A stretch of DNA of 6,028 nucleotides from a virus (Duplodnaviria > Heunggongvirae > Uroviricota > Caudoviricetes), in the IMG/VR virus record IMGVR_UViG_2534681627_000017. One strand, 5' to 3'. Position 1 is the stretch's first letter; every line of letters begins with the position of its first letter. A model generated the notes under the pieces. The model saw only the letters and a program-made list of their open reading frames with translations. It did not search any database and was not told the origin of the DNA. Shown here one piece after another: positions 1 through 6,028 of the stretch. A program made the translations under genes and the position numbers.

Positions 1-116
1 GGCAGACCTGTATGAGGCGGAATATATGCGTCACCTTCACCAATAAATTCATTAGTTCCGGCCAGCAGATTATAAATTTTTATGGTCCGTGGTTGTTCAC
101 TCATTCTGAATGCCAT
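1..116 (-). CDS. tfa: Tail fibre assembly protein Tfa, N-terminal 39 codons only; gene continues past the window start
   Basis: Minus-strand ATG at 116..114 opens a frame reading [39 protein letters not shown], which matches the lambda Tfa N-terminus as I remember it. The ATG overlaps the stf stop codon (TAATG, shared base at 116). Not in the ORF track because it is cut by the window edge. Confidence 0.8.
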
Positions 117-3100
117 TATGCAAGCCTCACAATGTAGTTAAATGCGATGTTTTTGACGGTGTTTTCCGCGTTACCAGCAGCGTTAACGGTGATGGTATGT
201 CCATGTGAACCAATCGCAACGGAGTGCGTATGAGCACCAATACCGACAGTATGTGCGTGTGCACCTGCGCTTGCAGCAGTACCCGATACAGAGTGCGTAT
301 GAGCGCCTGCAGAAGAAGTGTTAACACTGTATTTAGAATAATCAGGTGATCCACTTCCCGGAGCACCACTGGAACCACCTGAAACAAATGTCATCGAATG
401 GGTATGTGCACCGGCTGAAGCAGCCGTACCGCTAACACTATGGGTATGCGCACCAGTGTTATTCGTGGATTTAGTGCCGTAATCAAACGACGATGTGGTT
501 TTCGTCCCCAAATCAGTACTGGATGCGCTGGCGCTGTGGGTATGCGATTTTATGCCGTCCTGTTCCTGAGACAATACGGCACGACCACTGGCGGGCTTGC
601 CCTTAATCGTCCAGCCACGCATATCAGGGATCACGCCTGACGGATAAGCGGCTGCAAGTTTCGGGTAGGCAGATTTGTCAAAAGTCTGCCCCTGCATCAG
701 GGCATAACCAGACGGAACGGTATCTGATGGCCACGGGATTGGTGCGCCGACTGGGTAGCTTTCTGGTGGAAGATTTTTCGAGGTATAAACTTCTGCCCAG
801 CCTTCCTCAAAACCATAGCCATCTCTTGAGGAACGGTAGAACAGACCTCCATTTCTGTAATGCGCCTTCATCTGCAGGGTCCGGCAACTTCCGACTCCGG
901 TATAGAAGTTAACCAGAATATAGGTGTCGCCAGAGCGGGTGACATTGTAAGCGCCTGATTCGGCATTCCAGGGAACGCCACCATCCGCATCGGCATATGT
1001 ATCCGTTGCCCTTCTGGCAAAAGCAGCCACATGCGCGGCGGTTAAAGTGATATCAGTAGAACCATCAAATGGAACACCGGATATTTTTCTTGCAGTCTGA
1101 AGTTTTGTAGCAGTTGCAGCATTACCAGTGGTGTTCTGATTACCCGTAGTGTTTACACCTGGAAGGTTAATATTTGCAGAACCGTCGAAAACAACTCCAC
1201 CGATAGATCTTGCCGTCTGCAATTTCGTGGCTGTACTTGCATTACCATTCAATGAACCAGTTAATCCACCTGTAACAGACAACGGACCTGAAACTGTTCC
1301 TCCGGTTGTTGGCAGTGCTCCAATATCTAACGGCGTCGGTTTCTGATGTGTGCTATACATCGTATAAACAACACCATCGGTAACGCTGGAAGGCTTACTC
1401 GCTGAATATGTTGGCGATGTATAAATAGAAACTGTCGCATTTGCAGTACAATCCCAATGGATATTTACACGAGTCGCATAATTGCCAATCTCAACGTAAA
1501 TATCATATGTATCGCCGGATGTGTTGATCCAGGCGAAATTCGTTAATCCGACGGCTGTACGCTTCCACAAAGCCCCGGTAATTCCTTTGGGGTTTCCATT
1601 GCCTGCTCGTAGAACCAGTTCTGAAATGCCTGCCTGATGTGGGGAACCGACGTTGTAACCAGCGCCACCAATCAATGCGATGTAAACGATGGAACTCGCT
1701 TGTGGCATGGTAACCGTAGCCAGTTTGAACCACCCAGCCCCGCCAGAGAAAGACATCGTTACTGAATTTAAAGTACCAATATCTTTCGGCGTTAATGTTA
1801 TATCCGCAGTCAGTGCTTTTCCGTTAACTTTTCGGTTAGATGGCACCCTGCTATTCGCATTGTCATTGGCTGCTTTAACTGCTTTTGGCGTTGCGGCCAG
1901 CGATTCACTGATGCTATCAACAGCACTGCTAAGTTTCACAACACCTTTAGTTGTAAGGCTTGCGTCTTCCATCGCAACTGCATCGGCAATCTCTTCAGCA
2001 CGATCAGCAGCAGCTTCCGCACGGGTCGCAGCGGATTCAGCAGCAGTTTTGCTCTGAGATGCTGCCGTCGCACTGCCTGCCGCCTCTGTTGCTTTCGTGG
2101 ATGCCGTCGTGGCGCTGCCCTTCGCTGCTGACGCCTGTCTGGTCGCCTCATCTTTTGAAGCAGACGCAGATGATGCCGATGACGCTGCCGAACTGGCGGA
2201 CGATGCGGCTGCCGTTTTTGAGGATTCTGCACGGGTTTCCGACGCTTTCGCATTCGTTTCGGATGTCTTCGCTGCGGAAGCAGACCTCGCTGCTGCGCTG
2301 GCCTGTACAGCGGCTTCGCCAGCCTTCGTTGTGGCTGTTGAAGCGGACGATGCAGCACTTTCTGCCGATTTTCCGGCGGCGGTGGCACTGGCTGAGGCCT
2401 GCCCGGCACTTGTTGACGCGGCACTGGCAGACGACGCAGCCGCTGTTTTTGAGCCTGCCGCAGCTGAGGCACTCTGTCCCGCTGCCGTTTCAGAAGCCTT
2501 GGCGTTCGTCTCGGACGTTTTTGCCGCCTTCGCAGAATTTGCTGTCGCCGTTGCCGAGGAAGCTGCGCTGCTGGCGCTCGAGGCTGCGCTCGTTTCTGAT
2601 GATTTTGCCGCCTCTTTTGAAGCCGACGCATCCCGGGCTGAGGTGGCAGCTTCTGACGCTTTCGTGGTCGCGGTGGATGCTGAAGTGGCTGCTGATTGTT
2701 GTGACGCTGCCGCATTCGTTTCTGACGTTTTTGCCGCAGCGGCACTGGTGGCCGCCGCGCTTTTTGAGGACTCTGCAGCGGCAGCACTTTTTGATGCTTC
2801 AGTGGCCTTTGCTGATGCCGTTCCTGCGCTGGAAGACGCTGACTGAGCCGACGAAGCGGCCTGTCCGGCTGACGTGCTGGCTGCGCGTGCTGAGCCTGCA
2901 GCATCAGTCGCATGGGTTGCCGCCTCACGTGCTGATGTGCCGGCATCGCTGGCTGACTTCTTCGCGGCTGCCGTGTTCTGTGCCACCGCGGACGCGTTAC
3001 GCGCCACCTCTTCCACCATCAGTTCAAAACGGCGCAGTGCCTCAGGACGGGCATCATCCTCCGTCATGGCACCGAGAAAATCATTCAGCGTACCGGGTCG

Positions 3101-3343
3101 GGAATCTTCATACACGGTGATGGTCCCGGCATGTGACGGCGGGAATCCCTCCACCAACAGAATAACGCTGTACTGACCGTACTCAACGTCCATGCTGTAA
3201 CGCCCGGCTTCATCCGGATTTTCTGAGGCCAGCGTGTTCACCACCACCGTGGTGCTGTTACGTTTTGCTTTCAGCTGGATTGTGCAGTTCTGTACCGGTT
3301 TTCCTGTGCCGTCTTTCAGTACACCTGAAATCTTTACTGCCAT
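116..3343 (-). CDS. stf: Side tail fibre protein Stf, long mosaic variant (~1075 aa)
   Basis: ORF track 116..3349 (1077 aa from a GTG). I place the start at the ATG at 3343..3341 because the product then begins [26 protein letters not shown], as in lambda Stf, and a GGGG run sits 5 nt upstream, whereas the GTG has no spacing to it. The C-terminus ([40 protein letters not shown], HxH repeats, ending [22 protein letters not shown]) is the T4 gp37-like tip of lambda-family Stf. Two [12 protein letters not shown] phage tail-fibre repeat units lie at aa 706-770. Confidence 0.9.
197..553 (-). repeat. Coding array of seven His-x-His motifs in the Stf C-terminal tip
   Basis: Translation contains SHTHS, AHTHS (x4), AHAHT and SHGHT, separated by Gly/Ser/Ala/Thr-rich spacers; the unit GTAASAGAH(T/A)H recurs. 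Matching imperfect DNA repeats (gtgcgtatgagc / gtatgtgcacc) are visible on the + strand. Confidence 0.7.
1970..3001 (-). repeat. Ala/Ser/Thr-rich low-complexity repetitive shaft region of Stf (aa ~117-460)
   Basis: About 340 residues composed almost entirely of A, S, T, K, E, Q and G. The motif AAKTSETNA occurs three times (aa 205, 275, 359; nt 2737..2711, 2527..2501, 2275..2249), with ~20-bp imperfect DNA repeats on the + strand at about 2712-2734, 2505-2526 and 2258-2280. Confidence 0.75.
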
Positions 3344-3354
3344 ATTCACCCCAC

Positions 3355-3380
3355 AAAAAAGCCCGCCTGAACCGGCGGGC
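3355..3380 (-). terminator. Putative rho-independent terminator between lom and stf
   Basis: On the minus strand: GCCCGCC-ggttca-GGCGGGC (7-bp GC stem, 6-nt loop; 3380..3361) followed directly by TTTTTT (3360..3355). It lies 28 nt after the lom stop and 12 nt before the stf ATG. Confidence 0.55.
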
Positions 3381-3407
3381 TGTCATAACACTGTGTTACC
3401 TGGCTAA

Positions 3408-4007
3408 TCAGAATTTATAACCGACACCCACGATGAAACCGTCAGTGCGCCAGTCACCACTGCCGGAGCCTTCATAAGCAATATCAATGGCCACGGATTC
3501 GGTCGGGTTAAACTGCACGCCAGCCCCCCACGCCAGAGACGTGTTGCTGTGGCGACCGTCATCACTTCCGGTCAGCACATCGTGCTTTTTCCCCTTGTTG
3601 TCAGTTACGCGGAGATAATCCCCGGAGAAAGTCGACACGCGGCTGTAAGCCACACCCGCCATCGCATACGCGCTGAACCATTCATTCACGCGCACAGACG
3701 GCCCCGCCATTACGCTGAACCAGCGGTTACGAACGGAATCTTCATGCCAGCGGGTATCGCTGTAACGGGTCAGCTGGCGATTCTTGTCTCCTGCATAGCT
3801 GAATGACGTCACCAGCCCCAGTGTGTCCGTAAACTCATAACGGTATTTCACGTTAATCCCGTTCAGATCATCGCTGCCGGGGACGTTCGTCGAGGCATGA
3901 AGATAGCCCGCGCTCAGCGTGGACTGATGTTCAGACGCCCATGCAGGCGCACCGGATACGGCCAGACAAATGGCTGCGGACAAAATGGCGGCATAAAGTT
4001 TACGCAT
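3408..4007 (-). CDS. lom: Outer-membrane protein Lom (Ail/Lom/OmpX/PagC family beta-barrel)
   Basis: 199-aa ORF with a typical signal peptide (MRKLYAAILSAAICLAVSGAPAWA | SEHQ) and a C-terminal aromatic residue (..GVGYKF) as expected for an outer-membrane beta-barrel. The sequence is near-identical to lambda Lom as I remember it. A GAGAGGT Shine-Dalgarno sits 5 nt upstream of the ATG at 4007. Confidence 0.9.
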   Translation of the reverse strand: MRKLYAAILSAAICLAVSGAPAWASEHQSTLSAGYLHASTNVPGSDDLNGINVKYRYEFTDTLGLVTSFSYAGDKNRQLTRYSDTRWHEDSVRNRWFSVMAGPSVRVNEWFSAYAMAGVAYSRVSTFSGDYLRVTDNKGKKHDVLTGSDDGRHSNTSLAWGAGVQFNPTESVAIDIAYEGSGSGDWRTDGFIVGVGYKF

Positions 4008-4273: not shown

Positions 4274-6028
4274 TTAATACGCCGTTTTTGCGAACTTCAA
4301 AACCATAACCCAGGTTGAATACCAGTATGACTGTTGGTTATTTCCGCTCCCCGGATCGTCATACGCTATACCGTTAAAAATAATGGGCGGAATAATAATC
4401 TGGCGGTCAAAGTTATGATCATCGCTGATGGTGACTGTAACCGTACCGTTTGGTGTTTCCGTGTTACCCCACGTACCGACTTTTTTCGGGAAGGCTTTTG
4501 ATACAGCTTTAACGAAATCTCCTCTGACCTGGGTCGCCTCCAGCATGCCCTTAATCGTACAGTTCTGGTTAATCGTGACATTGTTGAGCGTTCCTGAGTT
4601 CGCATTCACACTGCCACTGATATCCGCATTTTTCGCCGTCAGTCTCCCGTCTGATGTCAGGGAAAATGCCGGAGGATTACCGCCGCTGGTAATGGTGGGG
4701 GCCGTCAGGCGTTTCAGGAACACTTCATTCATGAATATCTGATCGCCCTGACCAACAAACATCGGCTTTGTGTTGCCATTCGCAGGATTAATCATCGCAA
4801 TCCTGTCTGCTGCCAGCAGCACCTGACTCTGCATGCCGTCAGGGGTGTTCTCAATACCGGCACCGATACCCGCAATATAAAGGCGTCCGTCCTGCATCTG
4901 CTGCAGCTTCACAGCCCACATGCTGTTCAGGTTATTATTTGTATCAACCTGAACCTTCTGTATCTGCTGGATCGCTGCACTCTGATCTTCCAGTTTCTTA
5001 TTAACGGTCTGTGTGATTTCATTGCTGACATCCGTTATGGACGTCCTGATTTCAGTCAGGTCAGGCGCAAGCTGACCGTTATCAATCTGCGTCCACAGCT
5101 CCTGAGCCAGATGGGTTTTCCCTATCTCGCCTTTGAAAAAATCCAGATAGCCTGATGCATCATCACTCGGCTGACCGACAGCCTCCACGAATGCCGATTT
5201 GCCAACGGTGTTCACACTGCGAACGTAAAAATAATAATCATGGCCCGGTTTGATATTGATACTGGCGGCTATCCAGTACAGCGCCGTACCAAGATAGCGC
5301 GCTGTGGTTTCAACCTGCCTGATATCCGCAATCCGCTTTTCCGAGAACCAGAACTCAAACTGTACCGTCGGATCATAAACCGCAAGATGCGGCGTGGCGG
5401 TTATCTGAAAATACCCCGGTGTCAGCTCAATCTGCGACGGCGCTGCCGGTGCGGCAATCCGGAACGATACCGATGCCGGATCGCCCTGCTGTCCCCACGC
5501 ATTTACTGCCCGGACCGTCAGCGTGTAACGCCCCAGCGCCAGTTGTGTGAAGCGGTATGTGGTTTCCGCCGTCCGGGCTGTGCTGACCAGCCGCTCACTG
5601 CCGTCATCCGCTGCCACGGTCAGGCGAAGCATAAAGCTCACCCCCTTCACCACCTTCGGCGTGTCCCAGCGGGCCAGTACCTGATATTCCCCGCTGTCTG
5701 CGGTGACTTCGGCAGTCAGGTGCTGCACCGCTGGCGGCGTGACACCATTCACCGTGCCGCTCTGGTCGCCGTCAAAGTGCGCCCCGTTATCCACGATGGC
5801 CTCTTTTTCCGGTACATGCTGCACGGCGGTGATGGCATACATACCGTCGTCGTTCTCACGGATACTCACGCAGCGGAACAGGCGCTGGCGCAGCGTCGGC
5901 AGCTTCAGCCCCCACACGCTGTATCCGGCAACGCCGTCAGGAACACGGCTCACTTTTACCTTCACGCCGTCGGTGACGGACTGGACCTCCACGCTGACCG
6001 GATTGCCACTTCCGTCAACCAGGCTTAT
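4274..6028 (-). CDS. J: Tail tip / host-specificity protein J (central tail fibre), 3' portion; 5' end beyond the window; 3' end apparently truncated by frameshift
   Basis: The frame is open from the window edge at 6028; the track ORF 4274..5992 begins at an internal GTG. The translation (..[84 protein letters not shown]..) is collinear with lambda J as I remember it. The in-frame C-terminus ends ..KFAKTAY*, roughly 64 residues earlier than the homologous sequence runs. Confidence 0.88.

Follow-up and report, generated by a model that had tools for sequence, protein, structure and literature searches.

The window analysed in this study, a stretch of 6,028 nucleotides, raises the question of what is encoded by the repetitive interval 1970–3001 on its minus strand and of how that interval relates in length to its counterpart in phage lambda. 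The interval encodes 344 residues (aa 117–460) of the side tail fibre protein Stf, among them 135 Ala, 80 Ser and 39 Thr (74% A/S/T; 89% A/S/T/K/E/Q). This composition bears out the near-pure A/S/T/K/E/Q stretch of about 340 residues in the original prediction, which regarded the interval as a low-complexity shaft expanded relative to that of lambda by internal duplication. Our analyses favour another reading, to which we assign a probability of about 0.85, namely that the interval encodes the proximal rod in a side tail fibre of the lambda type, a parallel three-chain coiled coil with an Ala core, in the long form that is usual in E. coli prophages.

The side tail fibre gene and its relatives

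The gene stf occupies positions 116..3349 of the minus strand as a 1077-aa ORF that opens with a GTG at 3349. Its true start is probably the ATG at 3343, which yields the N-terminus MAVKISG like that of lambda; because residues are counted here from the GTG, our residue numbers are those of lambda plus 2. The N-terminal collar domain (aa 3–96; 3062..3343, minus strand) was identified by PF08400 (phage_tail_N), whose match extends past the collar (aa 3–136, E 1.5e-71), and by the Ur-lambda tail fibre structure 9e7m, whose match (aa 3–96, E 1.9e-51) corresponds to the resolved Ur-lambda residues 1–94. A rod of heptads follows at aa 103–459 (1973..3043, minus strand), as defined by its heptad table, phase tracking and an AF2 helix. 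The Ala/Ser richness ends at aa 460–500 (1850..1972, minus strand), a helical continuation of the rod that is poorer in these residues, as indicated by the AF2 helix to aa 500; its end is equivalent to lambda residue 393, the end of the proximal coiled coil (PMC12617516). The Mu-type tail fibre protein S (5yvq) matches aa 446–507, overlapping this continuation. At the C-terminus, aa 863–1077 (119..763, minus strand) represent a receptor-binding tip with HxH repeats, which is matched by the T4 gp37 needle tip (2xgf, E 5.4e-88) and supported by Pfam matches to Collar (PF07484) and Phage_fiber (PF03335).

The start of tfa, encoding the tail fibre assembly chaperone, lies at 1..116 on the minus strand, where it is partial in the window and was recognised by its N-terminus. 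It shares 1 nt with the stop codon of stf, the same overlap as in lambda, and the gene order J-lom-stf-tfa on one strand is also that of lambda. In its collar domain, gene order, proximal rod and gp37-type tip, this Stf is of the lambda type (PF08400 family), and the gene identity originally proposed is upheld by PF08400 and 9e7m at the N-terminus and 2xgf at the C-terminus. A search of the window against Rfam gave zero matches, and scans for promoters and terminators returned hits at chance level only.

Comparison with the Stf of Ur-lambda (PDB 9e7m/9mgh, residues 1–94; Yu et al., Sci Adv 2025, PMC12617516) revealed that, in addition to their position in J-lom-stf-tfa, the two proteins have in common an N-domain (about 92% identical), a heptad rod, the motif AAKTSETNA, a hinge region (KGxVxLSSA...ATPKAVK), a gp37-like tip and the Tfa chaperone. 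They differ in that the rod in the window has 105 more residues (15 heptads) and a third copy of the motif. The middle part, the distal shaft, differs as well, so that the window's Stf is 1075–1077 aa long versus 774 in Ur-lambda. In other E. coli phages and prophages of the lambdoid group, such as phi458 and 2H10 (Stf of 1117 aa), Stf has the same or nearly the same N-domain and 345-residue, three-motif rod, and differs only in shuffled distal and tip modules. At least 80% of the window is carried by about 770 complete E. coli genomes, the DNA of the rod is 88–100% identical in the lambdoid E. coli relatives, and one database protein (P0002) is 100% identical across the first 500 residues. 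Nothing in the rod distinguishes the window, whose protein is a standard prophage Stf and minor as a discovery.

Heptad pattern and proposed structure of the rod

The stretch aa 117–460 is not loose low-complexity sequence; it consists of ordered heptads. A total of 51 unbroken heptads with the consensus x-S-A-x-x-A-x run from aa 103 to 459, with Ser at position g in 37 and, as in alanine zippers, Ala at both core positions, a (35 heptads, with Lys in six and Glu in six others) and d (46 heptads). The first core positions (L105, F108, V112, V115, A119 and V122) form a hydrophobic cap. The Ala pattern repeats predominantly every 3.5 residues, a spacing characteristic of an alpha-helix; at this period its Fourier power was 8.6 compared with a maximum of 2.2 in 2000 shuffles, and a phase-tracking model returned a single uninterrupted in-phase segment, aa 106–459. 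An AF2 model of the monomer, made with no alignment (mean pLDDT 68.8), has a helix at aa 101–500. The S-A/E/K-x-x-A heptad was also found in representatives whose N-domains are only 47–55% identical, and most indels among homologues preserve the heptad phase.

Three Stf chains would most likely coil around one another in parallel as alpha-helices, with almost only Ala at a and d and the conserved Ser at the flanking g position. Such a rod would be a spacer: starting about 10 residues past the collar domain, by which the fibre is clamped to the tail tip, it would bear at its outer end the hinge, the distal part and the receptor-binding tip of the gp37 type. The rod of the lambda homologue was described as a trimeric coiled coil in 2025: residues 102–393 of Ur-lambda Stf have been assigned, from cryo-EM, cryo-ET and AlphaFold3, to the proximal coiled-coil domain of a trimer, and the fibres have the look of hinged rods that undergo rigid-body rotation, with a trimeric bundle resolved at their base (PMC12617516). 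The Ur-lambda fibre is a homotrimer assembled with Tfa, is present in four copies per virion and confers faster adsorption via an outer-membrane receptor (PMC12617516). By homology, the rod in the window would have the same parallel trimeric state, and the homotrimer, assembly by Tfa, four fibres and faster adsorption would carry over to this Stf as well. The AF2 model is uninformative on the oligomeric state because it represents a monomer whose helices fold back, at the Ser-rich residues ~251–260 and ~381–397. Those fold-backs may be an artefact of modelling a monomer, like that which the Ur-lambda authors saw with their full-length AlphaFold3 model (PMC12617516), or they could be real flexible points.

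The 51 strict heptads, together with the helix that continues to about aa 500, give a helical length of roughly 397 residues, compared with 292 in lambda. At 0.148 nm per residue the rod would be about 59 nm long versus about 43 nm in lambda, so that the extra 15 heptads would add about 15.5 nm of reach, and rod length may affect adsorption. Ala likewise fills both core positions in the alanine zippers, which are bundles of three parallel helices (E. coli Lpp-56, its Ala-5 to Ala-14 variants, and Licanantase; PMC4137666) and to which the rod has no sequence homology. Those zippers comprise few heptads, up to about 11, with long ones reportedly destabilising, whereas the rod has about 50 heptads, in which Ser is conserved at g and 12 of the a positions are occupied by Lys or Glu. 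All-Ala cores are reported to destabilise short trimeric coiled coils, and the Lpp Ala-14 variant forms no stable trimers in solution (PMC4137666). Therefore, the stability of the rod probably depends on its length and on its end domains. The rod would represent a natural alanine-zipper coiled coil that is far longer than the model peptides with unstable Ala cores.

A helical or fibrous spacer linking a tail-attachment domain to a receptor-binding tip is likewise a feature of T7 gp17 (rod at residues ~150–268), T4 gp37 and the fibres of Mu and P2, although their attachment domains and rod lengths differ from those in the window; the tip of T4 gp37 is homologous to that of this Stf. When the rod alone was searched against PDB sequences, the sole match was between T7 gp17 residues 173–264 and aa ~365–456, at an E value (0.16) below significance. 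SETNA-type motifs recur in the rods of other fibres.

Motif copies, DNA repeats and rod length among relatives

The motif AAKTSETNA is present in exactly three copies, at aa 205–213 (2711..2737), aa 275–283 (2501..2527) and aa 359–367 (2249..2275; all on the minus strand), confirming the copy number and the spacings of 70 and 84 residues originally described. A degenerate fourth copy, AAKSSETSA, lies at aa 247–255 (2585..2611, minus strand). The motifs are heptad blocks that set Glu at core position a. Their 27-nt coding sequences are 74–85% identical and differ at synonymous sites alone, which argues that AAKTSETNA is kept at the protein level. The original prediction of matching ~20-bp DNA repeats is correct to the extent that these motif-coding copies recur, yet they are diverged as above, and no exact DNA repeat in the shaft exceeds 14 bp (p about 0.12 versus codon-shuffled controls). 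Internal DNA periodicity is present: DNA self-identity was 0.439 when the lag was a multiple of 21 nt, whereas the other multiples of 3 gave 0.369 and all remaining lags 0.219, and the repeat spacings are all multiples of 21 nt.

The shaft is not described as a tandem array because its repeats are too diverged; Tandem Repeats Finder detected no real array in 1900–3100, just two trivial two-copy matches. The repeat blocks are 50–67% identical in DNA, with an identity of about 25% at fourfold-degenerate sites, which is the random value, and to judge from these sequences the DNA repeats of the rod are old. The top repeat block (aa 271–312 versus 355–396) has a score of 8.2, modestly above shuffled-heptad nulls (95th percentile 6.9, maximum 9.3). 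A single clean tandem duplication unit was sought and rejected: the best candidate, aa 194–305 versus 306–417, a shift of 16 heptads, is 54% identical, and shifting by 11, 12 or 22 heptads does just as well, so that there is no unique duplication register.

Rod length among relatives was determined in IMG/VR loci picked by N-domain similarity alone, 76 of which were measurable, that is, had both anchors, VEEVARNAS and KGxVxLSSA. The shaft between the anchors is 345 residues long, the three-copy form, in 74 of them, with the other two being longer by 4 and 9 residues (duplications of +12 nt in L012 and +27 nt in L080). Ur-lambda Stf, in contrast, has two AAKTSETNA copies (aa 203 and 273) and an anchor-to-anchor shaft of 240 residues, so the original prediction was accurate in giving lambda Stf two copies and a shorter shaft, the difference being 105 residues or 15 heptads. 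The segment without a counterpart in lambda Stf and other lambda-type short rods is aa 306–410 (2120..2434, minus strand; 315 nt), which includes the third motif copy. Among representatives of 50% clusters, in-phase rods span about 20 to 354 residues, and their length distribution has modes near 242–249 and at 354, in keeping with the proposal that shaft length, and with it fibre length, varies in this family.

In each short form, a prefix of the long form is joined directly to a suffix of it, and there are three different breakpoint classes in which 105 or 112 residues are removed. The lambda type is without aa ~306–410, the type represented by L093, P0139 and P0158 is without aa ~252–363, and the P0128 type is without aa ~202–306. 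The short forms are up to 94–95% identical to the long-form flanks in protein, and L093 shares 98.4% DNA identity with the joined prefix and suffix of one long relative, with a 336-nt deletion whose junction is an 11-nt match, GAAACGAACGC, within the motif. The degenerate copy AAKSSETSA is the left partner in this 16-heptad type of deletion. The lambda rod itself is only 79% identical to the window's prefix plus suffix, and wherever in the rest of the rod the segment missing from lambda is compared, its DNA identity is only about 51–56%. Since the short forms are prefix plus suffix and the missing segment is so different from the rest, lambda most likely deleted it, and the rod goes back to ancient duplications. 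The short rods, lambda's included, thus look like separate in-phase deletions of 15–16 heptads at three breakpoints, which would have arisen as rare events between diverged repeat blocks. The direction, deletion in lambda rather than expansion in the window, is probable on grounds of parsimony and the identity contrast. As lambda's rod would be a shortened version and most relatives are long, the window's rod is ordinary.

Changes in rod length are rare because the repeats are old, as evidenced by the limited exact repeats and the synonymous divergence of the motif copies, and the larger in-phase deletions are both rare and lineage-wide. The original proposal that the length is prone to recombinational change is therefore true only weakly, in that the +12-nt, +27-nt and 336-nt events did occur. 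There are no long near-identical units of the kind expected of a tandem contingency-type locus. From a wider perspective, the textbook lambda Stf has a short, minority rod, and rod length in the family shifts by whole heptads, in steps of 15–16 heptads (about 15–17 nm). Such steps matter when Stf chimeras are engineered, be it for studies of host range or for phage-based delivery. The Nature 2024 Stf-chimera paper contains nothing on the rod.

Alternative readings and overlapping open frames

Two other accounts of the shaft have to be weighed against the ordered rod. A recent internal duplication, followed by frequent recombinational gain and loss of units and a contingency-like fibre length, would explain the third motif copy relative to lambda, the 21-nt spacings, the rare length variants (including the deletion at the motif match) and the wide range of rod lengths in the family. 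We consider it unlikely, as exact repeats are no longer than in codon shuffles, the blocks are randomised at fourfold sites, no array was found, close relatives have almost exactly one length and the three short forms read best as deletions; for these reasons the notion of an expanded shaft in the window is not retained. Far less probable still is a disordered Ala/Ser/Thr linker or a beta or silk-like structure. The extreme composition, the lack of a PDB sequence relative of the shaft beyond the weak T7 gp17 match and the moderate AF2 confidence speak for such a structure, but a disordered linker has no reason to keep a strict phase through 51 heptads with Ala at a and d, nor would most homologue indels preserve that phase. 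The helical period, the helix predicted by AF2 and the rigid-body, hinged Ur-lambda fibres with their trimeric base (PMC12617516) also argue for the coiled-coil rod.

The last account concerns the open frames that overlap the rod on both strands, which are present as originally reported: the minus strand has one of 336 aa and the plus strand three, of 386, 249 and 100 aa. They had been ascribed to high GC content and to a third-position bias of Ala/Ser codons. The GC content is indeed 59–63% across the interval versus 44–53% in most of the remaining stf. No marked third-position bias exists, however (A 113, G 94, C 75 and T 63), and the alternative-frame ORFs are best explained by the amino-acid composition together with avoidance of T/A junctions (a T-ending codon before an A-starting codon), seen as a near-total lack of TA dinucleotides. 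The 336-aa ORF, in the +1 frame of stf (1936..2946, minus strand), is within expectation, as its frame is left open in 34% of synonymous shuffles, and 24 of 71 unique homologous shafts have one stop in it. The 386-aa ORF (1960..3120, plus strand) is open here only because no NCT codon precedes one that starts with A; stops interrupt it in 68 of the 71 shafts, and selection for it was rejected.

On this account, the 249-aa ORF (2097..2846, plus strand) would be a real overlapping gene, one that shapes codon choice and of which TA avoidance would partly be the signature. It runs opposite stf with the third codon positions of the two in register, the same frame relation as that of lambda orf206b; phrog_560 matches along its entire length (E 1.1e-118), all 87 unique long-form homologues leave it open and 81 keep its GTG start, TA dinucleotides are strongly depleted, and similar ORFs are annotated in lambda (orf206b) and phi458 (Orf45). 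Against this, a stop in this antisense frame requires a Gln, His or Tyr codon that follows a codon ending in T or C, a combination nearly absent from the rod; two stops were observed across the shaft versus 1.7 in synonymous shuffles, and therefore the antisense frame has no excess openness. The 93.6% protein identity of its homologues mirrors the 93.8% of Stf, the avoidance of T/A junctions also affects codons that are unable to make antisense stops, and the same bias exists outside the rod, albeit weaker (odds ratio 0.44 versus 0.14 in the rod). In addition, the 386-aa antisense ORF is broken in nearly all homologues, and a scan found no promoter-like site in 1900–3100. A coding role on both strands is thus highly improbable, and from these sequence comparisons we judge the 249-aa ORF to be a by-product of composition and no gene. 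Antisense ORFs of the rod region have repeatedly been annotated as genes, with look-alikes in lambda orf206b, phi458 Orf45, phrog_560 and phrog_3324, and are best treated as artefacts.

A heptad-phased coiled-coil rod in Stf

The interval 1970-3001 encodes the proximal coiled-coil rod of the side tail fibre protein Stf, an identification based on the domain assignment of Ur-lambda Stf and on matches of our protein to two solved structures. In Ur-lambda, Stf residues 1-94 were resolved as 12 domains that form a collar at the tail tip, ~10-residue linkers bring three collar domains into one trimeric bundle, and cryo-ET together with AlphaFold3 placed a proximal coiled-coil domain at residues 102-393, a hinge at 394-422 and a distal domain at 423-525 (Yu et al., Sci Adv 2025, PMC12617516). 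With residues numbered from the GTG at 3349 (lambda numbering plus two), Stf aa 3-96 match the solved Ur-lambda chain 9e7m (E 1.9e-51) and its aa 863-1077 the tip of T4 gp37 (2xgf, E 5.4e-88). Membership in the lambda Stf family holds on all features that could be tested.

The original prediction described the interval as a GC-rich, Ala/Ser/Thr-rich shaft with three copies of the motif AAKTSETNA, and our analyses bear out each of these points. The interval is 59-63% GC and corresponds to Stf aa 117-460, whose 344 residues include 135 Ala, 80 Ser, 39 Thr, 22 Lys and 20 Glu (A/S/T, 74%; A/S/T/K/E/Q, 89%). The motif copies are at aa 205, 275 and 359, and their spacings of 70 and 84 residues equal 10 and 12 heptads. 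When the sequence was laid out in sevens, aa 103-459 formed 51 heptads whose register is never broken, with Ser at position g in 37, Ala at d in 46 and Ala at a in 35 (with six Lys and six Glu also at a). The core begins with larger hydrophobic residues, L105, F108, V112, V115 and V122, with A119 among them. Fourier analysis of the Ala pattern gave a top peak at a period of 3.5 (power 8.6; 2000 shuffles never exceeded 2.2) and a second at 7.0, and a phase-tracking hidden Markov model returned only one in-phase segment, aa 106-459. The same periodicity is present in the DNA: all spacings reported by a repeat finder for the shaft were multiples of 21 nt, and mean self-identity was 0.439 when the lag was a multiple of 21, 0.369 for the remaining multiples of 3 and 0.219 otherwise. 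A control stretch of stf lacked this 21-nt signal.

In the heptad frame the motif reads T-S-E-T-N-A-K, its Ser falling on g, its Glu on a and its Ala on d, and each of the six Glu and six Lys at a is preceded by Ser, forming S-E or S-K heptads. Identity among the three motif copies (27 nt each) is 74-85%, and all differences are synonymous. Since the peptide remained unchanged while synonymous sites drifted, the comparison argues for constraint on AAKTSETNA at the protein level. SETNA-type heptads also occur in other rods of the Stf family, at up to seven per protein. The polar a-layers may aid register or solubility within an otherwise all-alanine core. The known alanine-zipper trimeric coiled coils are small, namely Lpp-56 and its alanine variants, whose stability falls as the zipper lengthens (PMC4137666); the Stf rod most likely works like a coiled coil of this kind. 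An AF2 monomer model of aa 90-520, made with no alignment, is helical over aa 101-500 (mean pLDDT 68.8). Two fold-back turns interrupt the helix where Ser is most abundant, at aa ~251-260 (window ~2570-2599) and at aa ~381-397 (window ~2159-2209), and these turns may be an artefact of modelling a monomer, or else flexible points of the rod.

Rod length among relatives and the direction of its change

The original prediction gave lambda two motif copies and a shorter shaft, and this is correct. The 774-aa Stf of Ur-lambda (locus L001) carries its two copies at aa 203 and 273, and its shaft measures 240 residues between the anchors VEEVARNAS and KGxVxLSSA, versus 345 here. The block absent from lambda is a single piece, aa 306-410, of 105 residues, exactly 15 heptads, with both ends on heptad boundaries. 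The rise of a coiled coil is 0.148 nm per residue, from which the rod would be about 59 nm long here (397 equivalent residues) and about 43 nm in lambda (292 residues).

Surveys placed this length among those of relatives. In the first, 80 IMG/VR loci were fetched with the N-terminal 116 residues only, so that their choice was independent of the shaft. Of 76 loci having both anchors, 74 have a shaft of exactly 345 residues; the other two carry short duplications, of TSAS (+4, L012) and of SKSAAAAES (+9, L080). In the second, a scan with the lambda N-domain, rods of 240 residues were found in lambda itself and loci L108 and L113, and rods of 233 and 125 residues in L093 and L094, respectively, together with many of 345 residues and other fibre types. 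Among 50%-identity cluster representatives with the N-domain, in-phase rods ranged from ~20 to 354 residues, with modes near 242-249 and at 354, and nearly all of them keep one phase throughout. Heptad phase is unbroken from N-domain to rod end, at any length, in most of these PF08400-family rods (P0123-P0270), and the S(g)-A/E/K(a)-A(d) pattern is retained even where N-domains are only 47-55% identical. The rod studied here belongs to the longest common length class, which is usual in E. coli prophages; its sequence is already in public databases, as a protein (P0002) that is 100% identical over the first 500 residues and in phage 2H10, which shares the rod. The finding is real but ordinary, a rod of known kind in its commonest form.

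The shaft had been read as an internal duplication relative to lambda, but the direction of change was likely the opposite. Every short form can be assembled from a prefix and a suffix of the long rod, with breakpoints that differ among three types: lambda, L108, P0126 and P0130 lack aa ~306-410 (105 residues), L093, P0139 and P0158 lack aa ~252-363 (112 residues, 16 heptads), and P0128 lacks aa ~202-306 (105 residues). Protein identity of short forms to the long-form flanks reaches 94-95%, whereas repeat blocks within the long rod have only 50-67% DNA identity, falling to ~25%, the random level, at fourfold-degenerate sites of identical residues. Because of this contrast, the duplications that built the rod appear to be ancient and the short forms younger, independent, in-phase deletions. 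By parsimony and the same contrast in identity, the 15 heptads were most likely lost by lambda rather than gained by the window phage. That lambda is probably the shortened variant, and that rod length shifts in whole blocks of 15-16 heptads, is of modest interest.

The prediction that such repeats are prone to recombinational length variation was upheld only weakly. Close relatives seldom differ in length (2 of 76). Exact direct repeats in the rod DNA reach at most 14 bp, which does not exceed codon-shuffled controls (mean 12.1, p ~0.12), no array was seen in the rod with Tandem Repeats Finder, and there is no unique repeat register, shifts of 11, 12, 16 and 22 heptads scoring alike. The part that stood concerns L093, whose rod DNA has 98.4% identity with the joined prefix and suffix of a long-form relative. 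Its 336-nt (16-heptad) in-phase deletion has as its junction an 11-nt identity, GAAACGAACGC, coding ETNA within the SETNA motif (L093 rod nt 393-404; locus L135), and this deletion shows that the short DNA match of the motif can act as a crossover point, as had been suspected. In addition, loci L061 and L067 change to a different fibre past the second motif, so the motif region also acts as a junction between fibre modules. These two and ~12 similar loci have the N-domain and rod up to the second AAKTSETNA, followed by a different rod rich in SETNA and by a distal part that is unrelated, in proteins of ~1100-1250 aa.

Antisense open frames and TA depletion

Long open frames were noted on both strands of the interval and are present: alternative-frame ORFs of 336 aa on the minus strand (1936-2946) and of 386 aa (1960-3120), 249 aa (2097-2846) and 100 aa (2874-3176) on the plus strand. 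The rod (1973-3043) has a single TA dinucleotide in 1035 nt, and its T|A codon junctions number zero; 1000 synonymous shuffles gave 12.9 +/- 2.8 and never fewer than 5. Without TA, the only possible stop on either strand is TGA. Only the lack of TA keeps the 386-aa antisense ORF open (none of 1000 shuffles left it so). It is not conserved: one to four stops interrupt it in 68 of the 71 unique shafts of homologues.

The 249-aa antisense ORF is open in all 87 homologues. It shares its third codon positions with stf, and stops in it are possible only from Gln, His and Tyr codons; across the shaft, two stops were observed in its frame, in line with the 1.7 expected. Its conservation (93.6%) mirrors that of Stf (93.8%). 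Counterparts are annotated as hypothetical genes, orf206b of lambda (L084, 1248-1868) and Orf45 of phi458 (L003, 3504-4241), and the ORF matches phrog_560 over its full length (E 1.1e-118), while the 386-aa ORF matches phrog_3324. Both families look like families of spurious gene calls, the ORFs being explained by composition, and the antisense ORFs annotated in the rod are probably artefacts. In the 71 unique rods, stf codon position 3 has 221 polymorphic sites, compared with 64 at position 1 and 59 at position 2, a concentration that identifies the stf frame as the one under selection.

Over 100 stf genes, the odds ratio for a T-ending NCN codon (Ala, Ser, Thr) before an A-starting codon was 0.14 within rods, compared with 0.44 for the other parts of these genes; T|A avoidance in the rod is a general bias in stronger form. 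Typical homologues have four to six T|A junctions, and zero is the extreme of the distribution.

Gene order and the start of stf

All genes in the window are on the minus strand in the order found in lambda. They comprise the C-terminal 585 codons of J (4274-6028; Ig_J, Phage_Tail_Tip and Ig_GpJ_C domains), whose ORF leaves the window, lom (3408-4007; Ail_Lom, E 5.9e-121), stf (116-3349, 1077 codons) and tfa (from 116), whose start shares one base with the stf stop, an arrangement also seen in lambda. The stf start called mechanically, GTG at 3349, lies inside the Shine-Dalgarno-like GGGGTGA, for which reason the ATG at 3343, giving the lambda-like N-terminus MAVKISG, is probably the true start and Stf 1075 aa long. 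In the gap that separates the lom stop codon from the start of stf, directly upstream of the stf ribosome-binding site, a strong GC-rich hairpin and T-run (3360-3381, minus strand; AGCCCGCCGGTTCAGGCGGGCT TTTTTG) has the form of a putative intrinsic terminator.

Some match to the window was found in 5223 of 5426 complete E. coli genomes, and at least 80% of it is covered in 772, the closest match being 98% identical; as judged from these alignments, the whole window is sequence matched by E. coli prophages. The places matching it number a median of 3 per genome and a maximum of 16. Most database entries for Stf (P0001-P0120) are labelled 'partial' and stop where a contig stops. It seems that draft assemblies break within stf, probably owing to several prophages per genome with the same sequence.
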